This document shows positions 583 to 63,069 of a DNA stretch of 64,000 bases, piece by piece. The stretch is from a virus. Both the position numbers and the translations under genes were made by a program. Position 1 is the stretch's first letter. Each line of letters opens with the position of its first letter. The notes beneath the pieces were generated by a model. The model had not been told where the DNA came from, searched no databases, and was given only the letters and a program-made list of their open reading frames with translations. Location of the stretch: positions 243,841-307,840 of IMG/VR virus record IMGVR_UViG_3300041809_000571; one strand, written 5' to 3'.

Positions 583-1776
583 CTATAAACGTTGCCTATC
601 CACAATGGAGATTGAGGAGACTCCGGGGGAACCCGGTATGTAGTCTACGTACATCCCCATGAAGTCCACATCCACCATCTGGCTATTTGCATCAGTCTTG
701 CGGACCGCTACCGTGGGTGCCCCTAGAAAATCAACCCCTGTCGGGGATGGAAAACAAGGACCTAAATTGTGGGACCAGCCAACTTGGAAATTATTGATAG
801 CGGCTAGACCTTCATTATATCCAAATTCAAAACTTTGTCCACCTGCCACTTGGGAAGGGTTGGAGTCAACCCATACTCCTCCTGCCCGTGCAGTGAGTGT
901 GGGGGTTCCATCGTTGACCACAGCCTGCATGGCATTTATGGTACAGCTTCCGTCTATCTTAGCGGAGGTATAGGAGTTACATACAGCCTTATAATCCTGA
1001 TTTCCCGAGGCACTGAAATTATGTATCTGGCTTGTATTCGTAGCATTGGCATCCGACTTTCCTGCCGGGGGGATATTCTTGACCGCATTGAACAGGTTGG
1101 TTGCTCCTCCCCCTCCTGCCAGCCAAGAACCGGTGGATGAGTCTGCCGCAGCCGGGAGGAGGACAGAACCCCCCGCACCGAGGGTGACAGAAGAGTTGTC
1201 AACCAGTATGTCATCATAGTATGCTTCGAACCCGCCTACAGTGTCTGCGCTGGAACTACCGACGTTGAAAAGTGTCCCGTTAGAGGGGATAATAACTCCC
1301 GTAGTCTGCGAGGCCCATAGTACCCCGTCCACGAATACCTGTGCCCCATTTCCTGCGTTGTACCCAGCGTTCACGGCCATCAGATGCCAACCCCCATCCA
1401 CAGTCATGGCATTAGTGCTGTTGGCGGAATTGAGGGAACCAGCACGGACATAGAGAGTGCCGTTGGGGTTCATGCTCAAGGCTGCCACAGTTGGGCTACC
1501 CACTATAAATAGGTTCACAGCCGTGCCGGGGAGATGCAGCAGCTTGAAATAAAACCGGAAACTCTGGGCAAAGGCTCGTGGAGTTAAGGAGGAATCATAG
1601 AGAAAGTGTTGAGTGAAACCCAACTTTCCCGCTGGCAACTGGATGTGCATCCCATAGTTTCCAGTCCTTGCAGCGGCGGGTATTGCCTCAAGGGTCCCCG
1701 AGCTACCCGTTGTTGACCGTGCGGAACACTCGTAGATGCTTCCCAATTCCCAGCCAAGGATGTAGGTGTTGGACAT
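583..1776 (-). CDS. ConA/LamG-like jelly-roll domain protein (putative fiber accessory/receptor-binding protein)
   Basis: 397 aa. DGGWHLMAVNAGYNAGNGAQVFVDGVLWAS resembles the LamG/concanavalin-like core. Start abuts the stop of the fiber gene, consistent with co-transcription. Confidence 0.45.
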   Translation of the reverse strand: MSNTYILGWELGSIYECSARSTTGSSGTLEAIPAAARTGNYGMHIQLPAGKLGFTQHFLYDSSLTPRAFAQSFRFYFKLLHLPGTAVNLFIVGSPTVAALSMNPNGTLYVRAGSLNSANSTNAMTVDGGWHLMAVNAGYNAGNGAQVFVDGVLWASQTTGVIIPSNGTLFNVGSSSADTVGGFEAYYDDILVDNSSVTLGAGGSVLLPAAADSSTGSWLAGGGGATNLFNAVKNIPPAGKSDANATNTSQIHNFSASGNQDYKAVCNSYTSAKIDGSCTINAMQAVVNDGTPTLTARAGGVWVDSNPSQVAGGQSFEFGYNEGLAAINNFQVGWSHNLGPCFPSPTGVDFLGAPTVAVRKTDANSQMVDVDFMGMYVDYIPGSPGVSSISIVDRQRL

Positions 1777-4700
1777 TTACGCCTTCACGATGAACAAGTC
1801 AAGGTTCAGCCTTGTGACAGTTCCCGCAGAGTCTAGGTTGAACTCCAAGACATCTCCCGCCAAAAGAGAGGTGGTCCATGTCCCGATGTTAGTGCTGGTA
1901 TTAAACTGTTGAGGTCCTGTTAGATTTGGCGGGGCAGAAGCTACGATGCTGACAGTAGTAGGGAGCGATGCATAGGCACACTTCTTGACGGTAATCTGAG
2001 CAGTGCCGGAGGCATTCGCCAGCATAGTCCACCCAGTTATCGTGGCATTGTAAGGAACCTGTATGTACCCATACGAACCCGTTGAGGGGACTGACCCCTT
2101 CCCGTCGATAGTGAGCGTGATGATTTGATTCTGTGGAGAATATATCAGGACCACATTCTGCCAAGTCAACCCCGCAATGGTGGAGCCTGCAAAGCTGGAG
2201 ACATTGGCAATATCTTGAGCAATCCGCTGGGAAGGACCAGCCTCAAAAGCCATGCCGAGAATCGTTATCACTGGGGTTGTATTTGCGCAGTAAACTCCCG
2301 CAATCACGTTATCTGAACCGTCGCTATTGTTGAAGACCGTATTCCCGACGAGCTTTGTGTTCGAAGCGGCGGCAGCGATGTACCAACCATATTCCGTGGG
2401 GCTGTCAGCGTAGCAATTAGTCCAAGTACTGAATTGAGAGTTGTCGTAGAAACAAACAGCCATGGGGTTGGCGCTGGCCGGTGCTCCACCATAGGCATGG
2501 ATGTCGGTAAACCAGCAAGCACCTGTGTCGGTTCTGACACCCGTGGCGCATCCTACAATGACAGCAGTGTCAACACGATTGTCGGTAATAGCCCCCGTAC
2601 AGTATACTCCCGCACCAGCAGCGGTAGTCGCTGCATAAACATGGACATTTTCCAAATAGCATTCGAATCCACCCGACCCGTGAACCGGGAAGTCCGTAAT
2701 GTCCCCAATCAGGAAGCCATTGGTCGTTGGGTACTTAACGTAGGTGTCTTTGATGGTGAAGTGCCTGCACGAGCGTACATATACCCCATTTGCGGCCAAG
2801 GCATTGCAATTAATCACGCCCCCGACCATGTTTGTACCCGGAAGGTTGACTGCTACCGTAGGCCCGACGATTAGGACTGCGTCCATAGCAGAGGAAGCAA
2901 TGAGTTGTGCTCCGGGGTCCATGACTAGGTTAACATTGTAAGGTATGATGATATGACTGGCCAGCAGGAATTGACCGGCTGGGACATAGACAGTACCACC
3001 TGAACTGAATGCCGCTGCCGCTGTCATAGCTGCATTGAATGCGACAACGTTATCAGTGCTTCCGTTCCCCACAGCCCCGTAATTCAAGACGTTAAATGGG
3101 TAGTCTACGAGGGGGCCATTTGGCCCCGTCCACCCGGTGTAGCCTGTATATCCTGTGGGTCCGGTATAACCGGTAACTTGAGGTCCCGTATATCCTGTGT
3201 ATCCACTGATTCCCATAGGTCCCGTATAACCCGTGGGTCCGGTTCCTCCCGGTCCTGTCGGACTGGTATAACCCGTGGGTCCGGTTCCTCCCGGTCCTGT
3301 CGGACCGGTATATCCGATGTATCCTGTATAACCGGTATACCCGGAGTAACCGGTTGGTCCTGAGTAACCCGTGGCTCCGGTATAACCTGTGTAGGCTCCG
3401 GGTCCTGTATACCCGGTATAGCCTGTAAATGCTCCGGGGCCAGTGGGACCGAGGGGTCCAGTATATCCTGAATAACCAGTATAACCAGAGGTACCTGTAT
3501 ATCCAGTATAACCTGTAAAGTTACCGGGACCGGTGGGACCCGTTGGACCGGTGTAACCAGTAACACTCGGGCCTGTGTATCCGGTGTACCCACTCTGACC
3601 CGTATAACCGCTCGGACCTGTGAAACCTGTGCTGCCGGGTCCTGTGTACCCCGTAAAACCAGTGAAGTTGCCTACACCCGTGGGACCCGTGTAACCCGTG
3701 GCTCCATCCGCTCCTTGATGCCCGATAGGTCCGGTGTAACCGGTGTCGCCTTGGAATCCTCGATAACCGCTATAACCCGTGTATCCGGTGAAACCCGTAA
3801 AGTTACCGGGACCAGTTGGACCGGTTGAACCCGTGTACCCCGTAACGGCGGGTCCGGTGTAGCCAGTCGGCCCACTCGGGCCGGTGGGGCCGGAATACCC
3901 CGTATACCCTGTAATGGTGGGTCCAGTGTATCCGGTCGGTCCAATGGGTCCAGTCGGCCCTGAATACCCCGTAAAAGCTCCGGGGCCGGTAAATCCCGTG
4001 TATCCCGTAAAACCCGTGAAATTGCCCGGACCGGTGGGTCCGGTCGTACCTTGCGGTCCCGTGTACCCCGTCCAGCCTGTAAAGTTGCCGGGGCCGGTAT
4101 AGCCCGTAGCTCCACTATAGCCGGTGAATCCTGTGAAATTACCCGGACCGGTTGGACCGGTTGTACCAGTCGGTCCAGTATACCCCGTTATCGAGGGTCC
4201 AGTGTATCCTGTGTAACCGGTTCTTCCGGTGTAACCGGTGTAACCCGAGTAACCGGTAAAATTGCCCGGACCGGTTGCTCCCGTATATCCGCTGTATCCC
4301 GTAGCTCCCGTGAAATTCCCCGGACCGGTAGGTCCTGTAGCCCCCGAATATCCCGTAAATCCTGTGAAATTTCCGGGTCCAGTCGGACCGGTGTAGCCGC
4401 TCGTTCCCGTGTAACCCGTATAACCTGTAAATGCTCCGGGACCAGTGTATCCCGTATATCCAGTGATACTGGGGCCGGTGTAACCGGTGACCCCCGCCGT
4501 CCCGGCTCTGCCGGTGTACCCGGTAGCTCCCGTGGGTCCCTGAAAACCTTGATACCCGCTGTAACCTGTGGCTCCCGTGGCTCCGGTATAACCCGTAAAA
4601 TTACCGGGACCCGTGGGGCCGGTTGCCCCGGTCGGTCCCAAATTTCCGCTATAGCCGGTATAGCCCGTGAAATTACCGGGACCCGTCACCCCCGTGTACC

Positions 4701-6162: not shown

Positions 6163-6519
6163 TTAGGCTTGGGGTGGGGGAGTAGCGGAGGAGGCAACAT
6201 CTACAAGTGTCTGAAAGATTGGGTCTTTCGACAGTGGCTCGGGAGCCGGGGTGGAGGGCGGTTCAGGAGGGGGAGCGGGGGGAGCTTTCACGATGGGGTT
6301 ACCCTCAAGGTCGGTCACCGTGGCGGTGATGTCAATGACCTGTGGGCGTTGAAGCAAGCGGAGGACGACCCCATTACGTTGCAGGTCTTGATACTCACGT
6401 ATCCCGGAGCCGGGCGGAATGGTCTGCACCTCGGCGAGAGAAACGAAAATTTCATACTCTCCCCCGGCGAGGTGGGTTCCATATTTCTTGATGATAGCAG
6501 CGACCGTGGCGGGGTTCAT
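6163..6519 (-). CDS. hypothetical protein, Pro-rich C-terminus
   Basis: 118-aa ORF; 4-nt overlap with the downstream metallophosphoesterase ORF. Confidence 0.4.
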   Translation of the reverse strand: MNPATVAAIIKKYGTHLAGGEYEIFVSLAEVQTIPPGSGIREYQDLQRNGVVLRLLQRPQVIDITATVTDLEGNPIVKAPPAPPPEPPSTPAPEPLSKDPIFQTLVDVASSATPPPQA

Positions 6520-7262
6520 CTCTCGAACACCACTGGAGGGTAGGGACCCATCTGCTTGCGCTCGTGGGGGTAGCCATAAGGGTTACAAACCACGGGCGTT
6601 TCTACGAACATGGTTCGATTGGGAAGGTGGGTATGTCCGTAGACCCACAGGGCGGGCTGGGCGATGCCAATGACGGGGTCCATGTTACAGACGAAAAACC
6701 GGTTGAGGGCGTCTCCTTGGAATACAGGAGCGACGGCGGTGTAGGAGGGGACATGGTGCGTGAGGACGACGGTGTCTCTCTTGATATGATTTTTTGCGGC
6801 TTCCACAAAATAGGAGTTGCTGGCGTATACCCATTTTTTGAACCCCTTGATGACGAGAAAATCAGACAGACCGTCTTCGTACATGAGGTTGCGGGAACTG
6901 TAGGGAAACCACATCGTACCGCCAAAGAAGTGCTGACCGTCGATGGTCACAGAGGTGTCCCGGAGCCAGTGGAAGTTGGAAGGCAGAGCGGCTTCAATGA
7001 GTGCCTCCACCGTCTCCTTGTCTCCATGGTAGTACTCGTGGTTACCGGTCACATAAAGCACATGCCGGGCCTTGCTGCCGAGGAATTCAAAGATGTCCCG
7101 GATGGTGGTCTTGCTTTTAGGAAAGGGCTTGGAGCAGGGGACTACGATGTCGCCGGGGAGGAGTAGGAAATCAAGGTCCGGCTCGAACGTCAGCTTCTCA
7201 AGCATTTTGAGAGGGAAGGCGTGGAACTCGGTGTGCAGGTCGGACATCAATTGAAATTTCAT
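6516..7262 (-). CDS. Calcineurin-like metallophosphoesterase
   Basis: Motifs LLLPGDIV, VTGNHEYY, VLTHHVPSY and YGHTHLPN match the MPP signature (GDxxD / GNHE / GHTH). Confidence 0.8.
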   Translation of the reverse strand: MKFQLMSDLHTEFHAFPLKMLEKLTFEPDLDFLLLPGDIVVPCSKPFPKSKTTIRDIFEFLGSKARHVLYVTGNHEYYHGDKETVEALIEAALPSNFHWLRDTSVTIDGQHFFGGTMWFPYSSRNLMYEDGLSDFLVIKGFKKWVYASNSYFVEAAKNHIKRDTVVLTHHVPSYTAVAPVFQGDALNRFFVCNMDPVIGIAQPALWVYGHTHLPNRTMFVETPVVCNPYGYPHERKQMGPYPPVVFER

Positions 7263-7540: not shown

Positions 7541-7572
7541 GGTTCGGTAGCCTGTCTATACAAACAGGCTAC
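7541..7572. other. 9-bp stem-loop (GTAGCCTGT / ACAGGCTAC) followed by TGTTTTG on the plus strand; possible terminator or processing hairpin between the vWA gene and tRNA-Gly
   Basis: Perfect 9-bp inverted repeat with an 8-nt loop, read directly from the sequence. Confidence 0.35.
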
Positions 7573-8204
7573 TGTTTTGCCGCCTTCCGTTGGGCGGAAG
7601 TGAACGACGCCTTGAGACCACGCCGGACGGCGCTGGTGTTGGCGCTTACGGCGAGGTACACTTCCTGAGTGGAAGCGGAGTTGTTGTTGTAGGTCATGGA
7701 GGTATCGGCGGAGATGTTGAACCCCTTGGCGGTCAGAACGGCGTCCTGATTGGCTCCCAAGAAGATGAAGGTCCAGTTGTACTTCTCTGTCTGGTGCTTC
7801 ACCATGTTCGCCACATTTTCCTTCGTGAATTCCTTGCTGGCGTTCTCATGACCATCCGTGAGGATGACGATGATGACTTTCTCCGGGCGCTCCTCTTCCG
7901 GCATCTTTTCCAGCCGCTCACCAACCTCGATAATCGTCCACCCCATGGCGTCATGCAGGGGGGTGTTCTCCCGTGGGGAGAAGGTGTCCTTGGTCAGATT
8001 TGGAACGTCCGCCAAAGGTGCGTCGATGACGATTTCGTGGGGGTCAATGGAGTCAAACTGGACCAACAGGAGATGGGCTTCGCCGGGCTGCTGCTTCTGC
8101 CCATTGATGAACTCGTTGAAGCCGTCGATGGTCGCATCCTTGACGATGCTCATGGAACCGGAACGGTCTAAAACTACGGCGATAAATGCGGAATCGGATT
8201 TCAT
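7569..8204 (-). CDS. von Willebrand factor type A (vWA) domain protein
   Basis: MIDAS-like DRSGSMS near the N-terminus and IIVILTDGHEN in the vWA fold. Strong RBS AAGGAGG upstream of the ATG at 8204. Confidence 0.7.
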   Translation of the reverse strand: MKSDSAFIAVVLDRSGSMSIVKDATIDGFNEFINGQKQQPGEAHLLLVQFDSIDPHEIVIDAPLADVPNLTKDTFSPRENTPLHDAMGWTIIEVGERLEKMPEEERPEKVIIVILTDGHENASKEFTKENVANMVKHQTEKYNWTFIFLGANQDAVLTAKGFNISADTSMTYNNNSASTQEVYLAVSANTSAVRRGLKASFTSAQRKAAKQ

Positions 8205-8615: not shown

Positions 8616-8955
8616 TTAACGTCGCTTTTTCGGAACACTGCTGACGCCCACGGCGGGGGTAAGCTCGCCGAGGACATCCTCATCCATCTCGTAACCAATG
8701 ACCGGAGTCTCTGCGTTGGTCGCCTTGATGGCGGCGTCCAGCTTGCGCAGTTCACGGGACAGGTGGGAAATCAGGCTGTCCAGAGCCACGACATCGTAAA
8801 GCGGATTGACTGTCTCTGGGGTGTCACCCTTGAGGCCACGATAACTGGTCCGGCTGGCAGAATTCTCGTTGCGCAGACTGATGAGTTCCTGATGCCGCTC
8901 TTGCAGGGTCTTCTTCCAAGTCAATGCCTCATTGATGGTGATTTGCTTTGTTGCC
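8616..8955 (-). CDS. hypothetical protein (113 aa)
   Basis: Internal start MATKQITINE... is preceded by AAAAGGAGAACCA. The longer 203-aa ORF to 9227 has an implausible low-complexity N-terminal extension. Confidence 0.45.
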
Positions 8956-9696
8956 ATTGGTTCTCCTTTTGAGTTGGTGCGTGACTCACGTTCTAACGCC
9001 ACGGCGTAGTGAGCGCAAACAGAGGGAGTTGCCGCCCGCTCCAGTGGCTCGGTAAAAGAGTTACTAGCTCGGCTCCCATTGCTGAGTAAATCCGTGGTCA
9101 AGCAGCGCTGATTCGCATCACGCACCAAGCTATAATACTGAAAATTTTGTGGACCTATAAGCGGAGTTCTGTGCCTCTTGCGAGGTGACAACCATTCGTC
9201 TAGGGCGGCCATTACTGGACGCCTCAAGCTCTCAACCCGAGGGTTATAGCGAACCGAGCAGGTTCATCCCCTCCTATTCGAGATTGCTCCCCGTGAAGAT
9301 TGCCCGTTTCACCCGGACTTAACCGGCTCGTCTCTGTTGCTCTAATTGTCGCAGTATTGCTACTGCGCCGGGGCGTTACCCCGCACGGTGCTCTGTGTAG
9401 CTCCGACTTTCCTCTCCCCCTTGCGGGGCAGTAGTTGTCCAGTCCACAAACTTTTTCCAAACTTAGGGTTATTGGGAGCGAAGATTCCCTTGGAGCCATC
9501 CGGGTCAAGGGCCTTCAAGGTCAGATAATAACTCATGCTCCCAATGCTCACGCCGTCACCTTACACCCACAAGGTTCATAATCCTGTTGCCAGCCGGGCG
9601 GTATACTCTTCATCCACCCCTTGACCTTGACCCTTACGGTACATGGCTTTTTGTGCTTACGGTGTTTGCATTTAGAACATTTGGCGGAGGCCATAC

Positions 9697-11607: not shown

Positions 11608-11961
11608 TGGTGGAGGCGACGGGGAGTTGAACCCCGTGTCCGAAAAGTGTCACAACAAGAAGACTACACGCTTATCCTGCTTCGTACTGCTCTTTGCCAT
11701 GACTCTGCTGAAACAGGCATATCAGAACCACGGTGCAAGCCTTCATCTCGCCGGATATCGGCTACATCCCCGGTCGCAGCCTCTCTATCGGCGCTTGGCC
11801 TCTACCCGACAGGCTAAAGCAGAGCAAGCGTGCCTAATCTAGCGATTAAGCAAATGCATATTGCGCTGTGGCAATTGCGTTGTTAACCCTTGTTACGGGC
11901 AGGGTAACCTCCCGGCGTGCCTTCCTGTAATGAGCGCTCCCGTCGAAACCAGAACGCCCCC
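11608..11961 (-). ncRNA. ssrA: tmRNA (ssrA-like transfer-messenger RNA), about 354 nt, CCA encoded
   Basis: Minus-strand 5' end GGGGGCGUUCUGGUUUCGACGGGA matches the tmRNA consensus GGGGnUGAUUCUGGAUUCGACGGG. The 3' end GGACACGGGGUUCAACUCCCCGUCGCCUCCACCA is a tRNA-Ala-like T-arm/acceptor with G3:U70, A73 and CCA. A candidate internal tag frame reads AAC AAC GCA AUU GCC ACA GCG CAA UAU GCA UUU GCU UAA (...NNAIATAQYAFA*). Confidence 0.8.
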
Positions 11962-14438: not shown

Positions 14439-14513
14439 TTGGTACCCACTGAGAGAATCGAACTCCCGACATCCTCCTTGTAAGAGAGGCGGTCTTCCAC
14501 TGGCCTAAGCGGG
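14439..14513 (-). tRNA. tRNA-Val(UAC)
   Basis: Acceptor GCCCGCU/AGUGGGU (two G-U pairs), anticodon arm CCUCU-CUUACAA-GGAGG, T-arm GGGAG-UUCGAUU-CUCUC, A73-CCA. Confidence 0.6.
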
Positions 14514-14526
14514 CAAATCTTGTACT

Positions 14527-14558
14527 AAAAACAAAAAAGGCGGCTTTTCAGCCGCCTT
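14527..14558 (-). terminator. Intrinsic (rho-independent) terminator on the minus strand: GGCGGCU-GAAA-AGCCGCC followed by UUUUUUGUUUUU
   Basis: GC-rich 7-bp stem with a 4-nt loop and an 11-nt U-tract, read on the reverse complement. It lies 13 nt upstream of the first tRNA of the array. Confidence 0.7.
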
Positions 14559-14686
14559 CGGGGGTCCTTGCTTGGATTTTCTATCCAAGCCCTCCCGAAG
14601 GCGAGGTATCGCCTCCCTCACACACTGCGGCGACCGCTTCTATCAAGTCAACCGGGTTTGTGATGGCCGTTTTCATGTTCATCTCG

Positions 14687-14706
14687 CTTCTATATAATAC
14701 TGTCGG
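14687..14706 (-). promoter_or_regulatory. Promoter-like motif CAGTATTATATAG (minus strand), one of two recurring motifs between the NADAR-region genes and the tRNA array
   Basis: Member of the recurring AGTATTATA motif family listed in the findings. Confidence 0.4.
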
Positions 14707-14882
14707 TAGTTCAAAAACTTCAAAAATTTGCGATAGACTTGACGGCGGCTCACTTGCGGGCGTGCAACCAAAGCTGCCTTGGTCTCCCGGTTGGCTCCGG
14801 TCTCACATTCTTATCTGCGAGTCTCCCCTACCAAGTTCCCTTGGCTTCATCCGGGGTATCTTCGGCCCCGACTACGGAGCCT

Positions 14883-14902
14883 CCGTCAAGTCTCTCACTT
14901 AC
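14883..14902 (-). promoter_or_regulatory. Extended -10-like motif CGTGGTATAATGTAAGTGAG (minus strand)
   Basis: TGG-TATAAT, nearly identical to the motif upstream of the tmRNA and of the 9909 gene. Confidence 0.45.
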
Positions 14903-14917
14903 ATTATACCACGAAAT

Positions 14918-15229
14918 TCAGGATTTTGAGGAAAAAAGTTTTCCTTCCTTCGCCCGGATGACATGCTCTCGGAGGTCATTCACCCTGTAGACCCCATACA
15001 TCCACAAAACACCTTGAATAAACCCTATCCACCGATTGACCTTAGCCTCATCATAATGCTCGGCTTTAGTGCCGTTGGCGTAGTTGAACATCTCCTCCAC
15101 CATCCACGCAGCGTGACGGGCCTGCTCGATACCGGGGTGAGGGCTTTTCGGCTCACCCTCAAGCCGTTGGGGCAATATCCACAATCGTTGGAACTCGCTC
15201 CGGTAGAACTCTAACAATTGGTATTCCAC
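14918..15229 (-). CDS. hypothetical protein
   Basis: 103-aa ORF. Its N-terminal 70 nt overlap the NADAR gene, so the true start may be the internal Met (MVEEMF...) near 15103. Confidence 0.35.
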   Translation of the reverse strand: MEYQLLEFYRSEFQRLWILPQRLEGEPKSPHPGIEQARHAAWMVEEMFNYANGTKAEHYDEAKVNRWIGFIQGVLWMYGVYRVNDLREHVIRAKEGKLFSSKS

Positions 15230-15683
15230 CCTGTGCCTCCGCTCGTATGAGCATCAAAATCTTACCTAAGTAGTTGTATTTCTGTTTCTTAGCACACTTG
15301 GCACAAAGGCAAATGCCCCAAAAATTATCGTGCCAATAATTGGTTTCCTCCAACACCATATAGCCGGTTCCCACCAGCTTGAGAAGGAGGAAAGTGTTCC
15401 TAAACTTCTGCCGGACGAGTTCCTCCATGATGTTAATGTTTACACTGTACCAAAGCGGCCACAGATGCCCAGCTTTGGTCAGTTTTTTGGCGAGCTTCTT
15501 TGCTTCGCCGGGGGTCATCCCGACAGCCCGGAACTGCTCCCGGATAGTGGGGTCAAGGAACTTGGCGGCTTGATAGGCGTGCTCTACCGAGGCGTACTCC
15601 AGCCCGTACAGATACACCGGGCAGGGGTAGTAGAAATTGGAACAGAAATCGAGAACCCCGGAGAACGCTATATCACGCCACAT
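15159..15683 (-). CDS. NADAR-domain protein (YbiA/DUF1768 family)
   Basis: Diagnostic NADAR motifs: FCSNFYYPCPVYLYGLEYASVEHAYQAAKF and EETNYWHDNFWGICLC...KYNYLGKILMLIRAE. Confidence 0.8.
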   Translation of the reverse strand: MWRDIAFSGVLDFCSNFYYPCPVYLYGLEYASVEHAYQAAKFLDPTIREQFRAVGMTPGEAKKLAKKLTKAGHLWPLWYSVNINIMEELVRQKFRNTFLLLKLVGTGYMVLEETNYWHDNFWGICLCAKCAKKQKYNYLGKILMLIRAEAQGGIPIVRVLPERVPTIVDIAPTA

Positions 15684-16227
15684 CCTTGCCCTCCTCGTTC
15701 AGTATCAGATAAGGCTTGCGCACATGGGCGCTGAAATACGTCGCCGCCATGAGCGCTTTTTCCAGCCGGGGCTTGGCGGAATCATCAGGGGTGACACTGA
15801 GCGCCCCGAGAGCATAAGGGCTTCCGCAGCCGATTGCCTCAAAGCCATCTACCCGCTCGAATACTTGAAAGTCTCCCTCAAAGCGGAAGATATGCCCCTT
15901 GAAGGCCACGAGGAATATCCCGGTGCTGCTATGCTCATCCTGTTGTGCCATGAAGCCGCCCACATTGAACGTCCGGCGCACCGCCTCAATAAACTCGGTT
16001 GCCATGAACTTTATCAGTGGGACCTTGGGGTCCTTATAGACAGGGGGTTCCAGCTTGTATTGAAGAAGCTGTGTCATACGCATCGACCCCACTGCTCCAA
16101 TCAAGTAGGGTCCATTAAAGAATGCCTTCCTGTTGGTGAGAGTCACCATATCCTCACCATCAGAGGCCGCAGAATCAGCGCCCATCCAAACCTTTCCGTT
16201 CTCAACCACGGCTGCTACACAAGACAT
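15673..16227 (-). CDS. HslV/proteasome-beta-like Ntn hydrolase (peptidase T1 family)
   Basis: MSCVAAVVENGKVWMGADSAAS aligns to the HslV N-terminus [21 protein letters not shown], and IGCGSPYALGAL aligns to HslV IGSGGPYAQAAA. Ser2 (after Met removal) would be the N-terminal nucleophile. Confidence 0.6.
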   Translation of the reverse strand: MSCVAAVVENGKVWMGADSAASDGEDMVTLTNRKAFFNGPYLIGAVGSMRMTQLLQYKLEPPVYKDPKVPLIKFMATEFIEAVRRTFNVGGFMAQQDEHSSTGIFLVAFKGHIFRFEGDFQVFERVDGFEAIGCGSPYALGALSVTPDDSAKPRLEKALMAATYFSAHVRKPYLILNEEGKDVA

Positions 16228-16694
16228 TGCTTCTCCTTTGGGACGCCGACGAAGGCGACTTGCCGAGCTATTTTACTCGGAGGCCACTCTAGGTTAATAC
16301 CAGATAATCGGAGAGTCTGAGTGACATTCACCCCCTCCGCCTCGGGACAGAAATCAGCGACATAATCCTCATGCTCCACGAGAAACGCCGTAACCTTGGC
16401 AGCGAGTTTCTTGCGTGCCCCGGTCTGCCAGTACAGGCAACACCGAAGTTGCCGTTCCGACCACTGCGGATGACGCAACTTCATCCTTCGCATATGGTTT
16501 GCTAAGTCGAATTCATTGATTATAGCGTAAACGGGTTGGGAGGTATCTATCTTATCAACAAACCGAATGCACTCCGGGGGGCACCCTACTTTATGTCCGT
16601 AACATGGACAGCCCTTTGGATGACCGGGGTACGGGAGCAGACAAAGCTTCCCTGAGTCAGGATATAGTGCGATTTGACGCAATTCCACGACCAT
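16215..16694 (-). CDS. hypothetical Cys-rich protein (CxC...C...C cluster, possible Zn-binding)
   Basis: 159-aa ORF with PKGCPCYGHKVGCPPEC and no assignable family. Confidence 0.4.
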   Translation of the reverse strand: MVVELRQIALYPDSGKLCLLPYPGHPKGCPCYGHKVGCPPECIRFVDKIDTSQPVYAIINEFDLANHMRRMKLRHPQWSERQLRCCLYWQTGARKKLAAKVTAFLVEHEDYVADFCPEAEGVNVTQTLRLSGINLEWPPSKIARQVAFVGVPKEKQCLV

Positions 16695-16702
16695 AAGCTC
16701 AC

Positions 16703-16957
16703 CTAAGAGTAATACTTCGCATAACCCCGATTCAGAACCCGCAAATTGCGGTGCCTCTGCTGATTGCTTTTGAGAAAAGAAATCAAGTTGGTCTTAACAC
16801 TGCGGATGTTGTGAATGGGGAAAGGTCCTGCTTTGATGTGATGCAGAAGAAGTATGGCAGTGCCATCCTGTCCAACTTTTTGAATGTCCGCCACAGCTTC
16901 ATCCTTAGAGCGGGGGCAGCATGGCCCCGGATACCGGCAGTTACACTCCGCCTGTCG
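16703..16957 (-). CDS. small Cys-rich hypothetical protein
   Basis: Start placed at the second Met (MRQAECNCRYPGPCCPR...), which follows GGAGGATTTT. The TGGTATACT motif lies immediately upstream. Confidence 0.4.
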   Translation of the reverse strand, partial: RQAECNCRYPGPCCPRSKDEAVADIQKVGQDGTAILLLHHIKAGPFPIHNIRSVKTNLISFLKSNQQRHRNLRVLNRGYAKYYS

Positions 16958-16969
16958 CATAAAATCCTC

Positions 16970-16989
16970 CACTCTCAGTATACCACGTG
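16970..16989 (-). promoter_or_regulatory. Extended -10-like motif CACGTGGTATACTGAGAGTG (minus strand)
   Basis: TGG-TATACT, the same family as the tmRNA promoter, 10 to 25 nt upstream of the RBS and ATG. Confidence 0.45.
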
Positions 16990-17071
16990 CGGGATGGACG
17001 CCGAAGGAATTTTTAGCTTCCGGCAGCGTCCATCGGGGGGCGGGGTACGATAGGGGACTCTACTACGGGGC

Positions 17072-17362
17072 TTAGCCGAGGGTGATTTTACGGATATTAT
17101 CGGCAGCGTTCCCCGCTATTTTGGCATCAAGACTTGTGGCAAGGGTGACTTTAGGAAGCTCCACCTCTACCATGGCGATTTGACTCGCCGCAATGAGCAC
17201 AAACTTGTTCTCCTTTTCCAACTTCTTGAGGAGACCCACACTGGCATACTGCACAATCGCCTGCATGGCGAGAGCCTCAGCATGTTCAGATGGGACGGGT
17301 AACTCCTGCACCTCCGTAGTACCATCCACGAAAGTCAGAACGAACTTAAGAATTGTTTCCAT
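17072..17362 (-). CDS. hypothetical protein
   Basis: 96-aa ORF with AAAGGA upstream of the ATG. Confidence 0.4.
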   Translation of the reverse strand: METILKFVLTFVDGTTEVQELPVPSEHAEALAMQAIVQYASVGLLKKLEKENKFVLIAASQIAMVEVELPKVTLATSLDAKIAGNAADNIRKITLG

Positions 17363-17385: not shown

Positions 17386-19290
17386 CTACAAGTCACACGA
17401 GCCGTTGGAACAGGCGACTTCCTTCATCGCCGTGGTGTGGTCGTCTTTCTCAAACTCAGGAAGCTTCGACCAGTCAATTTCCGGCATCTTGAGATTTGCC
17501 GCCCGGTACTCCACTTCGGATATCTCCGTGTAGGGAGCCTGCTTGTAGATGTGATTAGTGAACGGCAGGAAGGCTATCCCGCCGATTTGGTCAAAGTGCT
17601 TGTAGACCCATGTAGCCACTTCCAGCCATTCATGGTCCCGGACATAGATGGTCGTACTGGGGTTATGTTCGGTCCAGTGCTGACGGTAAGTGAGGTAGAG
17701 TTCAAGCTGTTCGATAGCGGTCAGCTTGTTCCGAGTGATGGACCCCTCGGGGGAGGCCAAGGGGAAGAAGAATACATCCACATCGTTGGGCTTCGTGACA
17801 TCCGGCTCATTGGGAACTCCACAAGCCTTGAGGAATGCTCCGATGGGATTCTTACGGTCTTCCCGGATAGCCCGCATGAGGTATTCGCTAAACCTCGTGT
17901 GAATGCCCGGCGAGCAGTTGACAAGCTGGCTCACAGTGCCGGACGGCTTGACGCAGGTGACGGCGACACTGGGGGTGATGCCCAACCTTTCCGCCCATTC
18001 CACGTTGGTAGCAACGGCATGTAGACGAAGGTGGTCAAGAAGAACGGTAAGCTCCTTGCCGTTGGTGGAAAGCAGTGGATTGTCCATAATACCCGAGAGT
18101 GAAACGCCCAATAGGCGCTCCTCCTCGGCGTTTTTCTGCCAGTCCTTACGCAGGTACCTAAATTCCGTTAGCGTCGATTGTAGGGTGCCTAGAATCGCCG
18201 CAAGGCGTATTTTACGTTCAAGGCTGGCGGCGTCGTCGGATGGACGGCAGACAACTTCGGTGAGGTTGCACAACCCCTTCGACCGGAGGATGATTTCGCC
18301 GCAAGGGTTGATTCCAAACTCAATACCCTCCCACTTACGGCGACCTACGGACTTGGCTTTCTTGACGGCAGCATCCCGGTTGTAGATGCCCCGTTCCCCG
18401 GACCGGCTCTCACAGAGTGACAACCACTCCCGGATGAAGGTGACCATCTCTGGTTTTTCGGTGTAAACGGCGGAGTTGTTGGCTAAGGCCCGTTGAGGAT
18501 TTTCAATCCACCACTGACCGTTCTTAGCGTTGCGCATCCGGTCATCGGATAGGTTGGAGAGGGATATCATTGCCGACCGGCGCACACCACCTGAAACCAC
18601 GATGTCGGCTACCATACACATGAGGTCATGACATTCGAGGGACGTGAGCTTGCGTCCGGCTGCATTCTTGAAAAGTTGGACAGTGAATTTGAAGAGACGG
18701 TCTAGCGGCCCCGGCCCGGATGCTCTGCCGCCGAAAGTCTTAAGCGGCATACCAGCCGGGCGGACAGAGGAGAGGTCCCATTGTGGAATTGAACCACCGT
18801 AGAGCAAGGCGATGAGTTGGCGGAAACCAGAAGCCCAGCCAATTTTTGAATCACGAATCTTGATGATGGTATCAACGGGGTAGAAGTTCTCGGCAACGGT
18901 AGGAAGTTGGTTTACATATTGGCGCTCTACGGAGAAACCTAAGCCTGCACCGCACATACTGATATACATGGCTTCGTCAAATGCACGGGGGTCATCAATG
19001 GCAAGATAAGAGCAGTTATAGGCGGCGACTTCGTCTTTTTCAAGTGCCTTCCCAGCGGTCACCATGGCTCGCATAGAGGGCATTACTTCCAGATTAAGAA
19101 TAGCGTTTTCCAACTCTTTTGAAGTCTCTTCTCGAATATCAGTGGGGATTCTTTTGGATATAAATTCGATGTATCTGTGGACGGTTTCTGACCAGTCTTC
19201 CCGGCGACCCTTTTCGGGAATCCAACGGGCGTAGCGGGATTTGAAAATGTAATTCTGAAACGGCGTAACGGCACCACTCTTCAAAGTCAT
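17386..19290 (-). CDS. Ribonucleotide reductase, single-chain (class II adenosylcobalamin-dependent-like)
   Basis: 634 aa with the RNR active-site region NPCGEIILRSKGLCNLTEV and an overall RNR large-subunit-like sequence. The class assignment (NrdJ-like rather than class I) is inferred from size and single-chain nature. Confidence 0.75.
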   Translation of the reverse strand: MTLKSGAVTPFQNYIFKSRYARWIPEKGRREDWSETVHRYIEFISKRIPTDIREETSKELENAILNLEVMPSMRAMVTAGKALEKDEVAAYNCSYLAIDDPRAFDEAMYISMCGAGLGFSVERQYVNQLPTVAENFYPVDTIIKIRDSKIGWASGFRQLIALLYGGSIPQWDLSSVRPAGMPLKTFGGRASGPGPLDRLFKFTVQLFKNAAGRKLTSLECHDLMCMVADIVVSGGVRRSAMISLSNLSDDRMRNAKNGQWWIENPQRALANNSAVYTEKPEMVTFIREWLSLCESRSGERGIYNRDAAVKKAKSVGRRKWEGIEFGINPCGEIILRSKGLCNLTEVVCRPSDDAASLERKIRLAAILGTLQSTLTEFRYLRKDWQKNAEEERLLGVSLSGIMDNPLLSTNGKELTVLLDHLRLHAVATNVEWAERLGITPSVAVTCVKPSGTVSQLVNCSPGIHTRFSEYLMRAIREDRKNPIGAFLKACGVPNEPDVTKPNDVDVFFFPLASPEGSITRNKLTAIEQLELYLTYRQHWTEHNPSTTIYVRDHEWLEVATWVYKHFDQIGGIAFLPFTNHIYKQAPYTEISEVEYRAANLKMPEIDWSKLPEFEKDDHTTAMKEVACSNGSCDL

Positions 19291-60537: not shown

Positions 60538-63069
60538 ATGAGTGTAAAGACCAAGACAGCCTACATTTCGCCGACGTTTGCTACGCTGGAGATTTCAGCG
60601 ATGCACACAGGTTTGTCTCCCACCGCTTCCATTGTCCTCGATTTAGGAATCCCCAAGTTCACCACGTTCTCCATCAAGTTCCCCATCCCCGAGGAGACCC
60701 AAGCTTTTCAACAGGTCGCCAGTGAGGCACTGGGGGTTATGTTGGATGAGATGACCGCCTTCATGATATCGGTGGGCTACAAGAAAGAAGTCATCGCCAA
60801 GATTTATGCCCTCACGCTAGCCTGCTACAAGGATTTGGTCGCCAATGACCACCCGGAGAATCGGGAGAAGGACCCCAGTATTGGCTCCGTGCGGGGAGAG
60901 TTTCAAATCCCTGCGGACTTCATCAATGAGACCCAGCGGTATGTGGTGACAGCGGGTAAGAAGGTAGACCGCAGCCCCCGGCAGCGCCGGGTGGAGATTG
61001 TCCCCAAGCGTCCGGTCAACCCCTCCAAGAACGATGTTCTCAAGGCTATCCGGCGCTATCGCTTCCAAAGCATTAAGAGTCAGCCGTTCCCCTTATACCT
61101 CGTGGTCTATGACAACATGGGACAACCCAAGGGTACGCTGACACTGGGGCCGGGCTTCCACAATGAGCTTTTGAAGATGCAGTACAAAAAGAAAGGGGCT
61201 GACCAAGACCCCAACCAAGCCTACAAAGACGCTGTAAGGGCCGGTGGAGGCGTTTGGAAGGGCATCGGAGAGAACGGTCTTGGCGGGTGGATGGTTTATT
61301 TCGATAACGCTGCTACCCGGTCAACCCTCACTTTGGATACCACGGAAGTGACGCCCGAGGCGGTCGCAGCCAAAATTAAGTTGAATCAGGATGCCACGGA
61401 TGAACGAAGGAAGAAAATGGCCGGTCAGTGGGGACCTCGTTCCTATGATGGTGATTCTATTCACGATATATTAGACAGGCATCGGCCCGGATATGACGAC
61501 GTGGGAGACCGGGAGCATTTGGGTTTTGATGAACCCATCCCCGAGGAGCAGTTGCCGTCCCTGTACAAAGAGATTGAGGCACTGGACCTCAGCCAGCCGG
61601 ACATGATGCAGAACTACGTGGGCGTGGTAGTGTTTCTCATAGAGCATGGCACGCTGGTCCCCGATACTCTTCGCCACAAAGCGGCAGAGCTTGCCACGGC
61701 ACTTCTCACCGGCACCAAAGGCGGCGGGCCGGGCGGAGCCGACGAGCGGGGGTGGAAGCTTTGGAAAGACCCAGAGGAGCGCAAGCAGCGGCTTCGGGAG
61801 GAGATTGCCCTCTTGAGCAAGGGTTCTCTCGCCAAGGAAGCACGTTTCCTCCGCATTGATGAGATGCAGGCTTGGGGGACGGGCAAACAGGATGAGTATT
61901 ATGCTCAACACCCGGAGCTTGGCAGTCCGGGAAAGAAGCTGAATCTCATGGTCACCGAGCCGGACGGAACCTCCACTCCGTTAGCTAAAGCGGTGAAGGC
62001 GGACTACGGCCCTGACGCCCGGCGCTGTCCTGAGTGTGGCTCCTCCAATGTTCATACGGTCCCGCACGTGCGAGGCGATGTGACGCATTGTGACGATTGC
62101 CAGCACGAGGCCCACACCTCGTGGTTTAAGGGAGCGGCGGTTCACCCGGAGTATGGGGATAACACCGCTGCCGTAGAAGCCAACCGGCCTTTAGTCGCCA
62201 AGACAAACCTCGAACTTGCGGCGAAGGAGGGTATTGAAACTAAGGGGGAAAGCCTTGTTCTTTACCATGGCACCCGGAGCGCAATCAAGATACGGAATTC
62301 CGGGGTATTTCCCATCGGCACGTACTTTGCCACGACGGAAAAGGAAGCATGGCAGTGGGCTTTGTCGGCTTCCCCGCAGAAGAACCGGGCGGTAGTGCTG
62401 AAAGTCTTGGTGCCAGCGGGCACGGTGTTCCCCAGTGGAGGTGGTGTGAGGTATTTCAGCACTAACGAGCAGATTCCCTACCGTCCCATAGGGGAGCCTA
62501 AGACCGCCGACTATTACGACGAGCAGGGTTTCTGGGCCGGTGAGGGCGGCGGAGCCTCGGGGATTCTCCCGGTCTGCACTACAACGGGTCGTATTTGCTT
62601 TGCATGGCGGTCTCCCGAGGTCCAACAGGGTTCCTGCTGGGGAACTATCGGCGGAGCCATCCAGAGGGGTATGCAGCCCGGTGAGAGCGCCAAAGAGGAA
62701 CTCTGGGAGGAGACGGGGTACAGCGGAGGCATGACCCTCCATCCCGCCTACGTGTTCCAAAGTGGGACATTTCGTTACTTTAACTTCATCGGTGAGACGG
62801 CACAGGAATTCGACTTCCAGCCTCAAAGTGATGCCGTATGGGAGACCGAAGGATTAGAGTGGTTTACACTCCCGCAGGTCCGGGAGTACATGGCAAAAAG
62901 TCCCCATGAGTTTCACAGTGGGGTAATAGCCCTGTTCAAGAATTCGGGGAAGCTTATCGAGCAGATTTGTGCGAAGGCAGCCCCCAAGAAGGGAAAAGGC
63001 GATGGAAAACCAAGCAAGGTTAGAGAGTCCAGCACTGGTAAAGCTCCGGGAGCAGGCGGCACAGCTTAA
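60538..63069 (+). CDS. Multidomain protein: N-terminal unknown region, Zn-ribbon, PARP/diphtheria-toxin-like (H-Y-E class) ADP-ribosyltransferase domain, C-terminal Nudix-like domain
   Basis: LVLYHGTRSAIKIRNSGVF (the H-G-T/S motif of H-Y-E ARTs), GTYFATTEKEA (the Y-F-A motif, compare PARP GIYFADMVSKSANY) and VRYFSTNEQIPY (compare PARP YNEYIVY catalytic Glu) lie at about 62230..62500. The Nudix-like box GGAIQRGMQPGESAKEELWEETGY (REUxEExGU-like, R replaced by E) lies at 62651..62722, and the Zn-ribbon CPECGSS...HCDDCQ at about 62020..62115. Confidence 0.5.
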   Translation: MSVKTKTAYISPTFATLEISAMHTGLSPTASIVLDLGIPKFTTFSIKFPIPEETQAFQQVASEALGVMLDEMTAFMISVGYKKEVIAKIYALTLACYKDLVANDHPENREKDPSIGSVRGEFQIPADFINETQRYVVTAGKKVDRSPRQRRVEIVPKRPVNPSKNDVLKAIRRYRFQSIKSQPFPLYLVVYDNMGQPKGTLTLGPGFHNELLKMQYKKKGADQDPNQAYKDAVRAGGGVWKGIGENGLGGWMVYFDNAATRSTLTLDTTEVTPEAVAAKIKLNQDATDERRKKMAGQWGPRSYDGDSIHDILDRHRPGYDDVGDREHLGFDEPIPEEQLPSLYKEIEALDLSQPDMMQNYVGVVVFLIEHGTLVPDTLRHKAAELATALLTGTKGGGPGGADERGWKLWKDPEERKQRLREEIALLSKGSLAKEARFLRIDEMQAWGTGKQDEYYAQHPELGSPGKKLNLMVTEPDGTSTPLAKAVKADYGPDARRCPECGSSNVHTVPHVRGDVTHCDDCQHEAHTSWFKGAAVHPEYGDNTAAVEANRPLVAKTNLELAAKEGIETKGESLVLYHGTRSAIKIRNSGVFPIGTYFATTEKEAWQWALSASPQKNRAVVLKVLVPAGTVFPSGGGVRYFSTNEQIPYRPIGEPKTADYYDEQGFWAGEGGGASGILPVCTTTGRICFAWRSPEVQQGSCWGTIGGAIQRGMQPGESAKEELWEETGYSGGMTLHPAYVFQSGTFRYFNFIGETAQEFDFQPQSDAVWETEGLEWFTLPQVREYMAKSPHEFHSGVIALFKNSGKLIEQICAKAAPKKGKGDGKPSKVRESSTGKAPGAGGTA

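Follow-up and report, generated by a model that had tools for sequence, protein, structure and literature searches.

A probable mosaic accessory island with genes for a predicted NADAR N-glycosidase and a proteasome-like hydrolase at the 3' end of a replication operon of a large uncultured phage

We analysed a window of 64,000 nucleotides from a virus (IMG/VR record IMGVR_UViG_3300041809_000571, positions 243,841 to 307,840 of that record) and, within it, a cluster of small genes at 14918-17362 that encodes a NADAR protein, a stand-alone proteasome-like hydrolase (HslV-like), a DUF2284-related protein and the small proteins g96, Cys89 and g103. With a probability of roughly 0.7, this region forms the variable 3' end of a replication and nucleotide-metabolism operon of a large uncultured phage and is a mosaic island of accessory genes. 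The order of the operon would be helicase, ribonucleotide reductase (RNR), g96, the variable island, and then an array of tRNA, transfer-messenger RNA (tmRNA) and RNase P RNA genes; the island genes would have been acquired or lost singly, or once as a pair (NADAR with g103). The initial annotation of this DNA had taken the cluster for a possible ADP-ribose-processing or counter-defence operon, but a comparison of genomic context among eight lineages of the clade shows no conserved unit. Coordinates below are window positions except where a clade locus is named, and the clade loci are labelled L004, L008 and so on.

Gene order and transcription

All six open reading frames (ORFs) and the RNR gene are closely spaced on the minus strand, and the ORFs lie where they had been annotated; the Cys89 ORF starts at 16972 (the ATG used previously was at 16957). 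The cluster had been placed just upstream of the RNR gene. It does adjoin that gene, but on the downstream side in the direction of transcription. From the RNR gene onward, the genes are as follows.

17386..19290, minus strand: class II (adenosylcobalamin-dependent) RNR, 634 amino acids (aa); first gene of the string; PHROG 367, E 2e-168
17072..17362, minus strand: g96, 96 aa; after RNR in every clade member
16703..16972, minus strand: Cys89, Cys-rich ORF of 89 aa; lineage-restricted ORFan with weak coding evidence
16215..16694, minus strand: DUF2284-related protein of 159 aa; five conserved Cys, probably metal-binding
15673..16227, minus strand: stand-alone proteasome-like N-terminal nucleophile (Ntn) hydrolase (BPH/HslV-like, group I); PHROG 1040
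15159..15683, minus strand: YbiA-type NADAR N-glycosidase / ADP-ribosyl-glycohydrolase (predicted); PF08719, PHROG 1017
14918..15229, minus strand: g103, PHROG 7775 protein, E 2.8e-13

The stop codon of the 159-aa gene overlaps the ATG of the HslV-like gene by 13 nt (ribosome-binding site AAGGAG), and that of the HslV-like gene overlaps the ATG of NADAR by 11 nt (ribosome-binding site GAGGAGG); from these junctions, the cluster genes are read as translationally coupled. The terminator scan found no convincing terminator between RNR and g103, and the sole strong terminator on the minus strand (14536-14559) is part of a separate micro-gene, which is described below. The dN/dS values against relatives were 0.05-0.33 for the genes other than Cys89, indicating purifying selection. 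The window is phage-like (a baseplate wedge protein, tail proteins and a lytic transglycosylase are encoded), and an array of 14 tRNA genes lies directly downstream of the cluster. The relatives are contigs from IMG/VR and metagenomes, the longest being 339 kb; in a DNA-level search of GenBank phages, RNR was the only matching part.

Presence and absence of the cluster genes

The eight clade lineages that were compared have in common the order helicase, RNR, g96, variable region and tRNA array. The gene content of the variable region was as follows.

Window: all genes present
L004-7: Cys89, DUF2284-like and HslV-like genes; NADAR and g103 absent
L008, L011-13, L105: HslV-like gene, NADAR and g103; DUF2284-like gene absent
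L014-17, L028, L106: DUF2284-like and HslV-like genes, NADAR and g103
L020, L103, L104: HslV-like gene only
L027: DUF2284-like gene only

Within the clade, the cluster genes have been gained and lost independently of each other, not as a unit. The HslV-like gene is present in seven of the eight lineages, and the closest relatives of the window (L004-7, 96% identity in the HslV-like protein) are without NADAR. The protein g103 is encoded in every clade lineage that has NADAR and is absent where NADAR is absent; the two genes form an indel of about 750 bp between the stop codon of the HslV-like gene and a conserved TGGTATAAT element, and the indel is clean in the comparison with L004.

Outside the clade, we collected 28 lineages with an HslV-like gene and 70 lineages with a DUF2284-like gene from IMG/VR, GenBank phages and metagenomes (sequences were assigned to different lineages when the identity in the anchor protein was below 80%). 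Neither NADAR nor a DUF2284-like gene was found within 6 kb of the HslV-like gene in any of the 28 lineages (0/28), and no neighbour family occurred in more than three of them. Similarly, an HslV-like gene was found within 6 kb in 0/70 DUF2284-like lineages. NADAR was near the DUF2284-like gene in two of the 70, which is by a rough estimate about chance, because roughly half of large phages carry NADAR (about 48% of medium and jumbo phages; PMC9503650). As for cultured phages, the HslV-like gene has no adjoining NADAR in Moorella phage MTATph1, Psychrobacter phage D'Alembert and Geobacillus phage E3; in Ochrobactrum phage vB_OspM_OC, 21 kb separate the two genes.

Some points weigh against a mosaic island whose genes come and go separately. 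The order HslV-like gene, NADAR, g103 is kept in five of the eight clade lineages and, together with the tight coupling, could mean functional linkage and not just common descent. The co-occurrence outside the clade was judged on neighbourhoods of 6 kb on either side, not on whole genomes. As for the function of NADAR, YbiA-type and T4 NADARs gave no rescue of DarT1 toxicity in one cellular study (PMC11125620), and anti-DarT1 activity of the window NADAR is therefore not to be assumed. Functional coupling of the HslV-like gene and NADAR was considered and rejected: the two genes adjoin in one syntenic clade only, in which L004-7, L020, L103 and L104 have lost the arrangement, and in none of the 28 other lineages. 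The overlapping of stop and start codons would be the usual packing of phage genes.

NADAR and g103

The presence of a bona fide NADAR gene was confirmed. The protein matched PF08719 with 62.9 bits (gathering score, 35.1; E 5.5e-17; profile positions 29-161 of 163) and YbiA (2b3w) with E 3e-7, with E34, E113, D119 and W122 corresponding to E48, E125, D130 and W133 of YbiA. These four catalytic residues are invariant across seven phage homologues. On its match to TIGR02464 (59.1 bits, below the cut-off of 73.7) the protein is assigned to the YbiA type. Membership of the T4 gp30.3/AdfN family (PF08010) was excluded (15.6 bits against 36). Phage NADARs are common, and the window protein has matches in 441 GenBank phage records.

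The protein belongs to the PF08719 fold family, as do E. coli YbiA and the phage anti-DarT NADARs (AdfN/T4 gp30.3, NADAR-Bas32 and NADAR-Bas60), and keeps the catalytic Glu/Glu/Asp/Trp residues; as with the phage anti-DarT NADARs, it is a small stand-alone protein encoded among early or replication genes of a large phage. It differs from the T4-like phage NADARs in having Glu at the position of E125, where theirs is His, and it has a CxCxxC insertion following the WG motif. Compared with the relatives L011 and L105, its C-terminal tail is extended by about 20 aa.

T4 AdfN, like two unrelated phage NADARs, neutralises DarTG1 (PMC11257639), and guanine-ADP-ribose was hydrolysed in vitro by all NADAR subtypes tested (PMC11125620, PMC11543638). 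From these experiments on the family, the window NADAR would most likely strip ADP-ribose from guanine in phage DNA, or cleave another ADP-ribose N-glycoside, and such activity would counter a DarT1-type host ADP-ribosyltransferase (ART). By analogy with the three phage NADAR lineages that act against DarTG1, a de-ADP-ribosylating counter-defence role is plausible for NADAR; for the cluster as a whole such a role is not supported. A DarTG1-type antitoxin standing beside its DarT was also considered; the neighbours of NADAR are the HslV-like gene and g103, and no ART match was found in the cluster, so that this candidate was rejected.

Alternatively, NADAR may act on soluble ADP-ribose-derived signals, RNA-repair by-products or riboflavin-pathway intermediates, and not on ADP-ribosylated DNA. 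The closest model is indeed TIGR02464 (YbiA / riboflavin-intermediate N-glycosidase; 59.1 bits), and the gene adjoins the tRNA, tmRNA and RNase P RNA island, but the score is under the cut-off of that model (73.7), neither an RNA ligase nor KptA was noticed in the vicinity, and both the cleavage of guanine-ADP-ribose by every tested subtype and the action of three phage lineages against DarTG1 (PMC11125620, PMC11257639) speak against this alternative. We consider a soluble substrate unlikely, although it is the alternative that keeps the most weight.

The protein g103 was rejected as an obligate partner of NADAR: the pairing is seen in the clade only, and homologues of g103 are encoded in E. 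coli phage JohannJBalmer (Bas62) and Serratia phage BUCT660 without NADAR within 3 kb. The small 'capsid maturation protease' that adjoins the g103 homologue of BUCT660 is not HslV-like.

The 843-aa Nudix protein and the operon interpretation

A protein of 843 aa is encoded at 60538-63069 (plus strand), adjoining tail and baseplate genes. It had been counted, as an ART-Nudix protein, with NADAR in a complete ADP-ribose toolkit of writer, pyrophosphatase and eraser. Two parts of this toolkit have domain matches above threshold, namely NADAR and the C-terminal NUDIX domain (32.2 bits against a threshold of 21.1), of which the best PDB relatives are ADP-ribose pyrophosphatases with weak E-values. 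For the writer, the match to ART-PolyVal (PF18760; residues 568-621, profile positions 2-54 of 140) reaches 16.4 bits, short of the threshold of 31.2, and a homologue search with the ART-like segment returned nothing. A writer in this protein is therefore only possible. The protein also has a zinc-ribbon-like segment (CxxC...CxxC, residues about 487-531), and its architecture resembles that of polyvalent proteins.

If the initial annotation were right in full, NADAR as the eraser would act in one ADP-ribose or counter-defence operon jointly with the orphan protease and the Cys-rich proteins, with a virion ART-Nudix protein as a complement. Such an operon agrees with the single strand and the overlapping stop and start codons, with the order HslV-like gene, NADAR, g103, which several clade lineages keep at identities as low as 54%, and with the NUDIX domain at 60538-63069. 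Nevertheless we regard it as improbable: each gene is found without the others inside the clade and the closest relatives are without NADAR, no pairing recurs beyond chance in the 28 and 70 independent lineages, the ART match is under its threshold, and the protease and the Cys-rich proteins have no PADLOC or other defence-related matches.

RNR, g96 and the Cys-rich proteins

The RNR is closest to the adenosylcobalamin-dependent RTPR (TIGR02505, 289.8 bits) and has Pfam matches to RNR_Alpha and Ribonuc_red_lgC. In L004-7, an insertion of about 975 bp follows residue 341 (about 2181-3157); the window RNR is without it. The insertion keeps the reading frame of RNR (one ORF, 1159-4041) and is therefore possibly an intein.

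The g96 gene was found in 25 clade loci (dN/dS, 0.00-0.14). The protein has no cysteine and no match in Pfam, PHROGs, NCBIfam or GenBank phages. As for the two Cys-rich small proteins of the initial annotation, the 159-aa protein can be placed in a DUF2284-related family, and for the 89-aa ORF the coding evidence is weak: Cys89 is restricted to the window and L004-7/L023-26, its dN/dS (0.75) is based on nine nucleotide differences only, and no family match was found in Pfam, PHROGs, NCBIfam or the PADLOC profiles.

The 159-aa protein fell slightly short of the gathering score of PF10050/DUF2284 (23.7 bits against 25), and most of its homologues at 45-62% identity have a precomputed PF10050 match. 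It thus has in common with DUF2284 (PF10050; COG5423, 'predicted metal-binding protein') the Cys pattern and the PF10050 matches; it differs in that its subfamily (691 clusters, 45-62% identity) is one of phages and prophages, is strongly conserved and is found in DNA-replication modules. From its conserved cysteines, it is probably a metal-binding or Fe-S protein. Foldseek yielded no significant PDB match, and in the literature we found no functional study of DUF2284, the mentions of the family being non-functional.

Among the neighbours of the DUF2284-like gene in the 70 outside lineages were a ParB_N protein immediately downstream (14/70), PolA with a uracil-DNA glycosylase (UDG) domain (9/70), a clamp loader (6/70) and an HD protein (5/70). 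The ParB_N, PolA-UDG and clamp-loader neighbours indicate that the gene belongs to DNA-replication modules, not to ADP-ribose biology; the protein would be a typical component of such phage and prophage modules.

The DUF2284-related protein is widespread in the replication modules of uncultured phages (L029-L102; for example, L077 6489-8351 and L057 2285-5020), where the ParB_N protein often stands immediately after it and PolA with an N-terminal UDG domain often before it. Only two GenBank phage records contain it (735-kb megaphage). Homologue P0106 has an N-terminal extension that is MazG-like by eye only, and P0068, P0076 and P0078 have a C-terminal extension (CxxCGCTW...C...GC.W..NDLCSxC).

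Alternatively, the DUF2284-like metalloprotein, possibly along with g96, might support the B12-dependent RNR, for example as its redox partner or by handling cobalamin. However, an RNR match was found within 6 kb in none of the 70 outside lineages (ParB_N, PolA-UDG and clamp-loader genes being there instead), L008, L011, L020 and L105 retain RNR without the DUF2284-like gene, and neither the Foldseek result nor the cysteine-free g96 favours such a role, to which we accordingly give very little credence.

Proteasome-like Ntn hydrolase

The gene at 15673..16227 had been described as an HslV-like peptidase with no HslU partner. The lack of an unfoldase partner and the Ntn-hydrolase assignment hold, but the HslV equivalog models failed (TIGR03692, 17.3 bits against 157.75; NF003964, 15.4 against 137) and the structural model is closest to BPH. 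The protein matched PHROG 1040 ('peptidase HslV family') with E 4e-20 and had no Pfam match; as a single sequence, it matched Thermotoga maritima HslV with E 1.5e-5. The profile of the family matched BPH (E 1.6e-10) and HslV (E 4.8e-10) in the PDB, in both cases from residue 1 of the mature chains, and Ser2 is therefore the predicted N-terminal nucleophile after removal of Met1. Among 23 aligned homologues, all but one carry Ser or Thr at position 2 (Ser in the clade, Thr in nearly all others); the alignment also has near-invariant D18 and K34 and invariant S48, R50, G133 and G135. The AF2 model (pLDDT 90.3) gave as best Foldseek match BPH (5ovs, TM 0.79), with HslV at a TM of about 0.67. From the conserved residues, the profile alignment and the model together, we assign the protein to the group I proteasome-like Ntn hydrolases with a predicted Ser2/Asp18/Lys34 triad.

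With the ATPase-less group I homologues (BPH, AAH/CPH/PPH), the protein shares a compact proteasome-beta/HslV fold of about 180 aa without propeptide. It further shares with them a nucleophile right after Met1, a Ser/Thr-Asp-Lys triad and the lack of an unfoldase partner; BPH has no such partner, and Ser is catalytic in some BPH subfamilies (PMC5777263). It differs from both BPH and HslV in sequence, being only about 22% identical to either, and, as noted, in failing the HslV equivalog models. PPH (Fuchs 2021; about 140 residues, no helix H2) was excluded, since the window protein has 184 aa and a modelled H2 at 71-89. No HslU-like or other AAA+ unfoldase was recognised in or beside the cluster or among the larger window ORFs that were scanned, and no ATPase recurred as a neighbour in the 28 outside lineages.

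On its fold and active site, the protein would lose Met1, use Ser2 as the nucleophile with Asp18 and Lys34, and probably form a double-ring self-compartmentalised peptidase like BPH, which would act on peptides or unfolded proteins without a dedicated unfoldase.

An orphan phage 'HslV' had been considered unusual. This view could not be upheld, because phage proteasome homologues without an ATPase have already been catalogued (PPH, AAH and CPH; PMC8665760), PHROG 1040 exists, and our profile search yielded 3,370 clusters at 50% identity (E<=1e-30). Among the best 147 profile matches, nearly all begin with MTC or MSC. The earlier suggestion that the orphan protease pairs with host HslU or ClpX is not supported. 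Cultured phages with the gene include Geobacillus E3, Psychrobacter D'Alembert, Yersinia phiR2-01 and several Vibrio and Microbacterium phages. A role as prohead protease was considered, as the gene is beside terminase or portal in three unrelated lineages and is called 'protease' in annotations of Microbacterium phages; it was not adopted because the gene is here in a replication module.

A further interpretation is that the DUF2284-like protein, the Ser-nucleophile proteasome homologue, NADAR and g103, with their translationally coupled genes, make up one counter-defence device in the clade; for example, the unfoldase-independent protease would destroy a host ADP-ribosyltransferase or another defence effector, and NADAR would repair the damage. 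If true, this would give a viral proteasome homologue a function for the first time, but we hold it to be highly improbable. Least credible of all is the suggestion that the protease degrades proteins tagged by the phage tmRNA (tags ending in QYAFA): the clade tmRNA gene lies on the same strand some 4 kb further downstream and the HslV-like gene is in seven of the eight clade lineages, but there is no unfoldase or adaptor, and tmRNA was found within 6 kb in 0/28 other HslV-like lineages, a count for which a local tie of the gene to tmRNA or tRNA arrays was also rejected.

Downstream boundary and RNA genes

Between g103 and the tRNA array, the following elements were assigned.

14901..14914, minus strand: extended -10 promoter-like element TGGTATAAT (14903-14911), read from the sequence; 3' boundary of the variable island
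14536..14723, minus strand: conserved micro-gene after the cluster and directly before the tRNA array, with promoter-like site, ORF and terminator
14694-14723, minus strand: promoter-like site of the micro-gene, TTGAAG-18-TATTAT
14581-14682, minus strand: ORF of the micro-gene, 33 codons, MNMKTAITNPVDLIEAVAAVCEGGDTSPSGGLG
14536-14559, minus strand: intrinsic terminator of the micro-gene; compensatory stem changes among relatives

L004 and L008 also keep the TGGTATAAT element, immediately following the last gene. After it comes a variable non-coding stretch (14760-14917, minus strand). For the whole segment 14530-14917, the computed folding is much more stable than that of shuffled sequence (z = -5.3); a comparison of 14480-14960 with Rfam gave sub-threshold matches only, and no known noncoding RNA family. 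The micro-gene is kept in all seven aligned clade sequences (7/7), and a 12-nt indel in L011, L020 and L105 is in frame and therefore supports its coding.

Downstream of the tRNA array are a tmRNA gene (11608-11961, minus strand; Rfam, 124 bits) and a full-length bacterial class A RNase P RNA gene (9142-9450, minus strand; 191 bits against a gathering score of 100), the latter lying downstream of both the array and the tmRNA gene. The tmRNA gene is also present in relatives (L004 11436-11787, L011 14518-14869, L014 13067-13420), where it is called by ARAGORN with tags ending in QYAFA; the window copy was missed by ARAGORN. The RNase P RNA is also present in L014 (13849-14162) and L015 (13850-14163), and is conserved in a relative of which the proteins are 54-59% identical. 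No report of a phage-encoded RNase P RNA turned up in a limited full-text literature search. Scattered among the tRNA-Gly, RNase P RNA and tmRNA genes are minus-strand genes for a calcineurin-like metallophosphoesterase (6516-7262), a VWA-domain protein (7569-8204) and a DUF6847 protein (8616-9227); the metallophosphoesterase gene is in the same place in L014. L004-7 have Cys-rich ORFs with HNH-endonuclease-like motifs between tRNA genes (L004 7523-8122, 8804-9454 and 10135-10647).

Implications

As a variable accessory island of which every component is from a described family, the cluster as such has little weight, and the interest is in its components. Viral proteasome homologues are without known function or substrate, and the cultured phages that carry the HslV-like gene are a better experimental entry than the uncultured phage of the window. 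The DUF2284-related family is abundant in the replication modules of uncultured phages and is uncharacterised. The window NADAR adds a further YbiA-type lineage to the candidate anti-DarT1 factors.

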